Positions 20,168-21,263 of a DNA stretch of 64,000 nt are shown here, piece after piece (position 1 is the stretch's first letter; each line of letters opens with the position of its first letter). The notes below the pieces were generated by a model. The model was not told the origin of the DNA and searched no databases. It saw nothing but the letters and a program-made list of their open reading frames with translations. Source of the stretch: a virus. The translations under genes were made by a program, and so were the position numbers. The stretch spans positions 1-64,000 of IMG/VR virus record IMGVR_UViG_3300035696_000035; one strand, written 5' to 3'.

Positions 20168-20541
20168 GCTACCCAATGCACGCCATCCCCGGCGAGCTGT
20201 TGACGTCGACCGAGCTCAAGGAGGACACCGACTACAACGCGTCGTGGAAGGTGCCGAACTCGATGTTCGACATCAGTGATCACCGCATCATGTTGGAGTA
20301 CGGTGAGCTGTGGCTGGTCATCGCCTCATGGCACGAGAAGAAGCAGCTCCAACAGGAAGCCAACGACCCGTGGGACACGCCGCACGAGTTCACGGTGTCA
20401 CCTGCCTTGCTGTGGCACCTACCTTCCAAGAAGATCTTCAAGTTCGACGACATCGAGAGGGTCGGGTGGCTGTGGCGGCCCAGTACGAAGTTCGACCGTG
20501 AGGTGAAGGAGATCCGGGGATGGCGAAAGAAGTCGACATGA
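20158..20541 (+). CDS. hypothetical protein
   Basis: about 127 aa; Trp-rich; start uncertain (20158 or 20176). Confidence 0.4.
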   Translation: MPLSYPMHAIPGELLTSTELKEDTDYNASWKVPNSMFDISDHRIMLEYGELWLVIASWHEKKQLQQEANDPWDTPHEFTVSPALLWHLPSKKIFKFDDIERVGWLWRPSTKFDREVKEIRGWRKKST

Positions 20542-21263
20542 CCAAGATGCGGGCGGCCTGCAGGGCGGCGGCTCAGACCCTGCATCTGGCGGGCTCGATG
20601 CTGAAGCCCGGCATGACGACCAACGACATCGACCGGATCGTCCACAACGACACCGTCCGCCGTGGTGGCAAGCCCGCGCCCCTCAATTACCGTGGCTTCC
20701 CGAAGTCGTGCTGCACCTCGGTCAACGACGTGGTCTGCCACGGCATCCCGGACAAGACGGTGCTGAAGGAGGGGGACATCGTCGACATCGACGTGACGAC
20801 GATCCTGGACGGTCACTTCGGCGACTGCAACGCCACCTTCATGATCGGGCCGGTGAAGCCCGAGGTCGAGGCCTTCGTCGTCCGTGCCGCCGCAGCGATG
20901 TGGGCAGGCATCCACGCAGTGAAGCCAGGTGCCCGCCTCAATGACGTCGGTCGGGCCATCGAGGCCTACGCCACCAGGGAGGGCTTCAGCGTGGTCAGGG
21001 ACTTCGGTGGCCACGGCATCGGCCGCGTCTTCCACGACAGCAAGCTCCACGTCCACCACTTCGCCAACAACGACAACCGGGTGCTGGTCCCCGGCATGCT
21101 GTTCACCGTGGAGCCGATGCTCAACATGGGCAAGGCCGACTGCAGGATCGACATGGGGGACATGTGGACGGTGCGGACCGTCGACGGCTCCCTCAGCGCC
21201 CAGTTCGAGAACACGGTGCTGGTCACAGACGACGGCGTCGAAGTCCTGACGAGGATCGATTGA
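20538..21263 (+). CDS. map: methionine aminopeptidase, type I
   Basis: Trimmed to MTKMRAACRAAA (ATGA overlap); DIVDIDVT, CHGIP, FGGHGIG, FTVEPM pita-bread metal-ligand motifs. Confidence 0.85.
   Translation: MTKMRAACRAAAQTLHLAGSMLKPGMTTNDIDRIVHNDTVRRGGKPAPLNYRGFPKSCCTSVNDVVCHGIPDKTVLKEGDIVDIDVTTILDGHFGDCNATFMIGPVKPEVEAFVVRAAAAMWAGIHAVKPGARLNDVGRAIEAYATREGFSVVRDFGGHGIGRVFHDSKLHVHHFANNDNRVLVPGMLFTVEPMLNMGKADCRIDMGDMWTVRTVDGSLSAQFENTVLVTDDGVEVLTRID

Follow-up and report, generated by a model that had tools for sequence, protein, structure and literature searches.

A trimmed, intact and apparently active type I methionine aminopeptidase in a presumed huge-phage lineage

Excision of the N-terminal methionine needs two enzymes, a peptide deformylase (PDF) and a methionine aminopeptidase (MetAP), and deformylation must come before MetAP action. 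Phage-encoded deformylases are known and characterised: cyanophages carry a PDF, the preceding enzyme of the pathway, in a form that lacks the C-terminal helix (PMC3660681), and huge phages carry PDF together with the initiation factor IF1 (Al-Shayeb et al. 2020, PMC7162821). For the aminopeptidase, it is the host enzyme that has been implicated, since cos-type Streptococcus phages are blocked at a late step when the catalytic domain of the host MetAP bears a mutation (PMC6761271). A literature search found no paper describing a phage MetAP in the searchable library. The present work concerns such a gene, located at 20520-21263 on the + strand of a 64,000-nucleotide stretch of viral DNA (positions 1 to 64,000 of IMG/VR record IMGVR_UViG_3300035696_000035, the whole of which is hereafter called the window). 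It encodes an intact MetAP that is probably a long-standing resident of a huge-phage lineage and would supply methionine excision, a role supported by the three observations cited above.

The PDF of cyanophage S-SSM7 (Frank et al. 2013, PMC3660681) is comparable to the window MetAP in that both are phage enzymes of the same two-step pathway and both are shortened. The differences are that the PDF is another enzyme with another fold, that it catalyses the preceding step, that it belongs to other phages and hosts, and that its activity was shown experimentally, whereas MetAP activity is predicted here.

Among the MetAPs themselves, the E. coli enzyme (type Ia; PDB 1MAT/2MAT family) is 48.7% identical to the window protein over 236 residues. 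The two have in common the M24A domain, the metal ligands, H79 and H178 (E. coli numbering), the S1-pocket residues and the absence of an N-terminal extension. In contrast to its E. coli counterpart, the window MetAP is phage-encoded, is about 5 residues shorter N-terminally and about 15 shorter C-terminally, and displays the clade signature DGHFGD in place of DGFHGD. The best-scoring structures are those of the actinobacterial type Ic enzymes (PDB 8yp6; M. tuberculosis MetAP1c 4ook, 3pka and 1y1n; E=6e-78 to 1e-73), whose catalytic domain is about 53% identical to the window MetAP (52.7% for 8yp6). Type Ic is defined by an N-terminal extension of about 40 residues, which carries a PxxP motif. 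The window protein aligns from residue 47 of the type Ic chains and is devoid of this extension, only 7 residues preceding the conserved KMR. The extension of M. tuberculosis MetAP type 1c is reported to be required for activity (PMC3154147). The N-terminal zinc-finger region of subtype Ib (eukaryotic cytosolic) is absent as well, the window MetAP having no N-terminal extension. Trimming is a property of the whole viral clade described below, with 7 residues before KMR and 3 after the final ...LT; its nearest cellular relatives have 12 and 18 at these places. The window MetAP can be classed, from its alignment, as Ia-like and as consisting of a trimmed catalytic core only.

The enzyme, its active site and its start codon

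The features of the gene are as follows.

20506..20511, + strand: Shine-Dalgarno-like AAGGAG, 8 nt 5' of ATG 20520, read from the sequence
20520..21263, + strand: type I MetAP coding sequence, 247 aa, called on PF00557, TIGR00500, GC content at third codon positions (GC3) and the identical Joint Genome Institute (JGI) product P0001
20538..20541, + strand: ATGA, in which the MetAP Met7 codon lies over the TGA stop of the upstream gene; taken as the start by the first-pass annotation, probably internal
20739..21209, + strand: active-site codon span (H74 20739, D91 20790, D102 20823, H165 21012, H172 21033, E198 21111, E230 21207)

The first-pass annotation of this DNA had called the protein a type I MetAP with a full set of metal ligands, had proposed a comparison with Pfam Peptidase_M24, and had named loss of the ligands on alignment as the result that would count against it. 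The comparison gave a match with PF00557 over positions 2-208 of the 208 in the profile (E=3.6e-51). The NCBIfam equivalog TIGR00500 (type I) scored 277.4 bits against a cutoff of 171.35 and spanned residues 5-246 of 247, while TIGR00501 (type II) stayed at 93.3 bits, far below its cutoff of 222.65. The same distinction is seen with structures from the PDB, type I MetAPs matching at E=1e-67 to 6e-78 and type II structures at E=1e-9 to 1e-19. The window protein is a type I, not a type II, MetAP that comprises a full-length pita-bread M24 (MEROPS M24A) domain. The JGI gene call gives the same 247-aa product, already labelled 'methionyl aminopeptidase'.

The active site was assessed by aligning the window protein to its 120 best homologues in the database and to E. 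coli MetAP, in whose sequence the positions of D97, D108, H171, E204, E235, H79 and H178 were verified. The metal ligands D91, D102, H165, E198 and E230 correspond to E. coli D97, D108, H171, E204 and E235, and the catalytic histidines H74 and H172 to H79 and H178. All five ligands are present, so that the loss envisaged at the outset did not occur, and together with the two histidines they are invariant in 120 of the 120 homologues. The S1-pocket and nearby residues C70, Y62, F177, W221, T99, Q233 and M206 (E. coli numbering) are kept in the window protein and in nearly all of the homologues, and E. coli Y65 is replaced by F both in the window protein and in 119 of 119 aligned homologues. The enzyme is apparently active, intact and catalytically competent. 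The viral signature DGHFGD, which reads DGFHGD in 78% of cellular MetAPs, amounts to a swap of the adjacent pair F105-H106 of E. coli, just before ligand D108 (in the window, 20811-20828, residues 98-103 GHFGDC). This swap was the sole clade-wide substitution found.

The MetAP open reading frame (ORF) has a GC3 of 0.91, a strong codon bias that separates it from shadow ORFs on both strands. In the first-pass annotation the gene began at 20538 and was ATGA-coupled to small paralogous genes on both sides. Four orthologues begin MRYVDIIKMR, MQPVDLTKMR, MRPFDLEKMR and VKEVDMDKMR, that is, 6 codons before the position of window Met7, and three of the four have L or I at that position. The likely start is 20520 rather than 20538, because the orthologue starts, the AAGGAG at 8 nt and the JGI call of 247 aa all favour it; from there the gene overlaps the upstream gene by 22 nt. 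The ATGA at 20538-20541 does exist, but its Met is probably internal, and the downstream overlap is TTGA, a TTG start at 21260 lying over the MetAP TGA stop at 21261-21263. This TTG start agrees with the orthologue in the related contig L001, which starts with ATG and reads MSHLDDY. The next junctions 3' are GTGA (21499) and ATGA (22554), and from 13020 to 24499 every gene is on the + strand. A scan of 12.5-25.5 kb yielded promoter- and terminator-like sites at chance level only; within the block, the + strand has none of the latter before 24404.

Phylogeny, selection and genomic setting

The viral comparison set consisted of about 50 short MetAPs of 240-255 aa, five of which are extended at the C-terminus by a tail of about 40 residues. 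The 50 proteins formed one clade in 174-178 of 200 neighbour-joining (NJ) bootstrap replicates (87-89%). Neither the window protein nor P0001 had an exact match on a contig, and context was therefore drawn from relatives. It was viewed for eight loci of the clade; all eight are phage-like and the same neighbourhood recurs. The viral status of the remaining members is taken from sequence length and tree position. Syntenic MetAPs in IMG/VR and metagenome contigs are 55-82% identical to that of the window. Among six orthologues, the ratio of nonsynonymous to synonymous substitutions (dN/dS) was 0.05-0.24 for the five closer ones and 0.24-0.44 against that of L003, the most divergent; dS ranged from 0.7 to more than 1.4 and is near saturation, so that the true dN/dS is probably lower. 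These values point to a gene under purifying selection and retained across related phages, not to a one-off capture.

The added tail occurs in five orthologous MetAPs of the window's own subclade (P0003, P0008, P0009, P0013 and P0014) and is missing from the window MetAP and from P0002. In P0009 (L001 9998-10864) and P0003 (L090 10001-10858) it displays the pattern CxxC...CxxC and is zinc-ribbon-like. The N-terminal zinc fingers of eukaryotic MetAP1 serve ribosome association. By analogy, the CxxC tail could be a convergent docking module.

The best identity to a cellular protein was 57% in a search of 185,579 species genomes and 59% in a protein database, in both cases with Polyangia/Myxococcota. 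The type I MetAPs of this group (for example from Polyangiales MAG JBBRLQ01, Labilithrix metagenome-assembled genomes (MAGs) and Pendulispora albinea; 265-266 aa, 55-59% identical) form the NJ sister group; they are longer than the viral proteins at both termini and their genes do not adjoin adk or infA. The sister position was found in only 86 of 174 bootstrap trees, and a source or host in the Myxococcota is suggested as a lead only. The GC content and GC3 of the MetAP gene resemble those of neighbouring conserved phage genes. The first-pass annotation had proposed a comparison with host map genes to exclude recent horizontal gene transfer. Such a transfer is excluded by the ceiling of 57-59% on cellular identity, by synteny at saturated dS and by dN/dS well below 1, and the MetAP gene is best read as an old, vertically kept phage gene. 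Joint capture of map and infA from a secY-adk-map-infA cluster was considered and rejected, IF1 or Adk being encoded within about 6 kb in 0 of the 80 closest cellular loci.

Two further type I MetAPs were encountered in phage records. In the huge phage LR756511.1 (595 kb), deposited as an 'uncultured phage' without annotation, the product is 44.6% identical to the window MetAP, and Vibrio phage V6Aob (PV454620.1) encodes a 'type I methionyl aminopeptidase', 34.5% identical, whose annotated neighbours are phage genes. Both are independent acquisitions, as the tree places them among other bacterial sequences and not in the clade described above.

Genes of the recurrent neighbourhood are present in the window, where an AAA ATPase gene follows the SPFH gene.

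13020-16196, + strand: vault-like protein, 1058 aa (MVP_shoulder E=6.7e-29, Vault_3)
16275-18197, + strand: SPFH/Band_7 protein, 640 aa
18622-19902, + strand: AAA ATPase
31576..31845, - strand: IF1 homologue, 89 aa (phmmer against E. coli IF1 E=1.2e-20; TIGR00008 85.1 bits against 61.15)
39991..41631, - strand: GroEL chaperonin homologue, 546 aa (PF00118 E=1.2e-70; TIGR02348 645 bits against 582)

The order common to the relatives is vault-like protein, SPFH, small-gene array, MetAP, array, Metallophos, IF1 and GroEL, and IF1 is also found near MetAP in L007, L090 and L103. At its N-terminus the IF1 homologue extends some 20 residues beyond the TIGR00008 match, which covers residues 21-89. IF1 and GroEL had been listed in the first-pass annotation; both are genuine, as they exceed the NCBIfam equivalog cutoffs. 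A GroES candidate upstream of GroEL (41665-41949, - strand, 94 aa) was discarded, having no Pfam and no Cpn10/GroES match.

Related MetAP genes occur on viral contigs of IMG/VR that measure 369 kb (UViG 3300005529_000001), 216 kb and 151 kb; others occur on metagenome contigs, as long as 227-351 kb, that derive from Hainich groundwater and further samples. The window itself contains dozens of short (70-130 aa), overlapping, co-directional ORFs, and among its phage-type genes are those for a T4-type lysozyme domain, an endonuclease VII and a DenV-like pyrimidine-dimer glycosylase. All long relatives keep the vault-like gene, whose product has homologues at 42% identity in the curated huge phages LR756500 (462 kb) and LR756501/3 (735 kb); a 2023 preprint (10.1101/2023.11.10.566534) described MVPs in viruses. 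For the 24 kb around MetAP, no near-identical DNA was found in GenBank phages. The size of the IMG/VR relatives, the phage-type genes and the vault-like homologues favour a viral nature of this DNA, and make a strong but indirect case that the window is part of a huge phage, one of a lineage whose very large members occur in soil and groundwater.

The small-gene array and other genes of the window

MetAP is surrounded by a family of small genes, called family A. A hidden Markov model (HMM) built from five seeds and iterated found ten members in the window, of which five stand in tandem 3' of MetAP, one is at 19862-20167 and four are elsewhere.

19862..20167, + strand: family-A member, small beta-barrel paralogue (HMM E=7.8e-6, domain E=1.8e-4; start GTG 19862 or ATG 19874)
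20158..20541, + strand: upstream small gene, 127 aa from ATG 20158, MPLSYPMHAIPGELL... (GC3 0.83)
21260..21502, + strand: family-A paralogue, TTG start (HMM E=1.3e-17)
21499..21882, + strand: family-A paralogue, GTG start, GTGA overlap, GGAGGA 5' (HMM E=8.5e-19)
21906..22208, + strand: small gene with a PGTFI...LVIGW motif, HMM-negative (orthologue L001 11921-12220)
22192..22557, + strand: family-A paralogue, query for the structure model
22554..22967, + strand: family-A paralogue, ATGA overlap (HMM E=2.9e-16)
23075..23296, + strand: family-A paralogue with a partial gp23 Gol-like segment (HMM E=1.6e-18)

The model of the 22192-22557 product is a small beta-barrel (strands 2-6, 12-14, 30-33, 40-46 and 58-63) followed by two C-terminal helices. 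As to the paralogues said to flank MetAP on both sides, the downstream half of the claim is upheld by the tandem, HMM-detectable run at 21260-23296. Upstream, the immediate neighbour at 20158-20541 is not detected by the family-A HMM, with which family it shares only a motif pattern (PG[DE]L.../PGELL..., LWLVIA, GW), and the gene beyond it, 19862-20167, is a weak member. Both upstream genes have orthologues in relatives: 19862-20167 in L001 (8944-9252) and L092 (1526-1795), and 20158-20541 next to or near MetAP in L090, L091, L092 and L103. Family A has no match in Pfam or PHROGs and only 6 matches in a search of 5.8 billion proteins. It is extremely diversified. In the deep-branching relative L103 (positions 1-9900; logan:SRR21686417_15476, 78 kb), a MetAP 57% identical to that of the window lies within a run of some 33 genes that share one direction, are coupled by overlaps and encode 60-105 aa; many have PGxxV...LVI and few are HMM-detectable.

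One family-A paralogue per genome carries a segment, VRR..P.LIA....VQPM..P.G..F...YG, that aligns to residues 96-132 of the T4 major capsid protein gp23. These paralogues are found at 23075-23296 (+) in the window, L092 4403-4993, L090 12391-13092, L007 6364-6717, L001 12951-13559 and L002 ~8644-9249. In L090, L092 and L007 the start of the Pfam Gp23 model is matched at 36.8-40.4 bits, above the gathering threshold of 24.4. The motif is complete in the orthologues of L001, L002, L007, L090 and L092, while the window copy (23075-23296) retains only its second half, QPLSMPKGSVFYLDYTYGG. Residues 96-132 of T4 gp23 presumably overlap the Gol region. Gol is a highly conserved segment of 29 residues in the first quarter of T4 gp23 that binds EF-Tu (PMC3014915). 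By analogy, the Gol-like paralogue could serve as a capsid-peptide decoy or bind EF-Tu. The products of 22554-22967 and of L001 12547-12954 end in 'VYAPY[VI]PL...' ('VYAPYVPL' in the window copy); the match of 22554-22967 to Pfam Gp23 positions 316-343 (E=0.0069) is below threshold. I take 'VYAPYVPL' to resemble the C-terminal motif 'YYAPYVAL' of T4 gp23.

The other genes assigned are as follows.

23501-23869, + strand: endonuclease VII, inside the small-gene block
33868-35091 (+), 34928-35788 (+), 35778-36569 (-), 52615-53865 (-) and 60118-60534 (-): sugar-nucleotide/glycosylation group with a transporter, namely UDP-galactopyranose mutase, two GT2-like glycosyltransferases, a UDPGP-family uridylyltransferase and a half-size EamA-type transporter
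42268-44010, - strand: second AAA ATPase, 580 aa, given, like the next two genes, as downstream of GroEL
44676-45500, - strand: TANGO2-family protein
46085-46999, - strand: ADP-ribosylglycohydrolase
49707-50603, 51534-51971, 53678-54187, 54587-55219 and 57752-58600, - strand: DNA-repair-type cluster, with Fpg/Nei glycosylase, HhH-GPD glycosylase, DenV-like pyrimidine-dimer glycosylase, NUDIX hydrolase and 5'-3' exonuclease
58881-59849, - strand: transposase-like protein (phrog_10081, E=4e-23)

The relatives have one or two endonuclease VII genes and a NUMOD3 gene. Since their positions vary from one relative to another, this suggests that these nuclease genes are mobile.

Proposed role of the enzyme and competing explanations

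I infer enzymatic activity, expression timing and benefit to the phage from sequence data. By the chemistry of the family, D91, D102, H165, E198 and E230 would hold a dinuclear metal centre and H74 and H172 would assist catalysis. The enzyme would hydrolyse the initiator methionine off deformylated proteins that have a small residue at position 2 (Gly, Ala, Ser, Thr, Pro, Val or Cys). Its gene lies in a co-directional, overlap-coupled block of small beta-barrel paralogues, within a conserved neighbourhood that also holds IF1 and GroEL. Possession of its own N-terminal methionine excision would free the maturation of phage proteins from the amount and the state of the host MetAP during infection.

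Several observations weigh against the reading of this gene as a resident phage MetAP that supplies methionine excision. The DNA examined, the window included, showed no capsid, portal or terminase gene, and viral status rests on the IMG/VR classification, on gene content and on one protein shared with curated huge phages. PHROGs v4 holds no MetAP family; MetAP therefore seems uncommon among cultured phages and may be of benefit to this lineage only. In the L007 relatives the genes directly beside MetAP do not belong to family A, so a functional tie between MetAP and the array is not required. A search of the six frames of the 64-kb window for the PDF motifs EGC[LMF]S, HExDH and GxGxAAxQ gave nothing. 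Since deformylation precedes MetAP action, the phage would still be host-dependent as far as the window shows. The window also contains no ribosomal genes, and tRNA and Rfam scans of it returned nothing. The 'self-contained translation/maturation strategy' put forward in the first-pass annotation is an overstatement for a window without PDF motifs, tRNAs or ribosomal genes. With regard to PHROGs, the match of MetAP to phrog_24316 (E=1.3e-9, partial) was set aside as that of a distant M24 relative and no family of phage MetAPs.

Two of the alternatives concern what the protein and the DNA are. The gene could be a host map recently captured and without adaptive role, or the contig could be bacterial and the gene a housekeeping map; most 'phage' GenBank records with a MetAP do resemble bacterial contamination, and the nearest cellular proteins all belong to one phylum, the Myxococcota. 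However, no cellular protein exceeds 57-59% identity, the gene is syntenic in phage-like contigs at saturated dS with dN/dS well below 1, its surroundings consist of short overlapping ORFs together with genes of phage type (lysozyme, endonuclease VII, DenV-like), without an adk, infA or ribosomal-protein operon, and the viral clade is monophyletic at 87-89%. This explanation, already largely refuted, is very improbable. Alternatively, the protein could have lost its aminopeptidase activity and bind the ribosome exit site or another partner, as does the eukaryotic M24-fold protein EBP1, a possibility brought to mind by termini trimmed unlike those of the nearest cellular enzymes and by the C-terminal CxxC...CxxC tail that some orthologues add. 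A pseudoenzyme would not, however, be expected to keep its catalytic and metal residues invariant across about 50 viral sequences, the full-length TIGR00500 equivalog score also speaks against one, and I would be most surprised if the protein proved to be inactive.

The two remaining ideas accept an active enzyme and differ from the preferred reading in what it would be for. MetAP may be kept for particular phage proteins, such as those of the virion or the array paralogues, or as a counter-defence against host resistance or shut-off that reduces MetAP activity. This would fit with the finding that a single mutation of the host metAP stops a late step of some phages (PMC6761271), and with the position of MetAP inside the array of paralogues in the majority of relatives throughout the clade; in addition, six of eight array genes begin with Met-Ser, Met-Ala or Met-Pro and are predicted substrates, a proportion that is near background and constitutes weak support. 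No sequence feature, however, separates such a role from general supplementation, the S1 pocket is standard, the F105-H106 swap being the sole clade-specific change, and the link with the array is broken in L007. A specialised role is thus unlikely, albeit worth keeping in mind. A broader and more speculative idea, to which I give a rather low probability, is that the conserved block as a whole docks on the host translation apparatus: MetAP would sit at the ribosomal exit and IF1 at the 30S A site, GroEL would see to folding, and the Gol-like paralogue would take part as well. The array would then provide adaptors or decoys directed against translation factors or capsid-sensing defences, and MetAP would bypass the host MetAP, a known phage-resistance locus.

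The preferred reading remains that of an intact MetAP long resident in a huge-phage lineage. The kind of enzyme is fully known, and the gene is a sound, unsurprising addition to the translation-related genes of huge phages; because huge phages are already known to have many such genes, the general picture is unchanged. Phage PDFs had provided one of the two enzymes of N-terminal methionine excision; what is added is a MetAP that appears to be conserved and under selection throughout a huge-phage lineage, trimmed to its core and travelling with IF1 and GroEL. As a naturally minimal type I MetAP, the protein is potentially useful for biochemistry. Taken with the dependence of some phages on the host enzyme (PMC6761271), the gene raises the testable idea that large phages secure protein maturation, beyond translation, for themselves.

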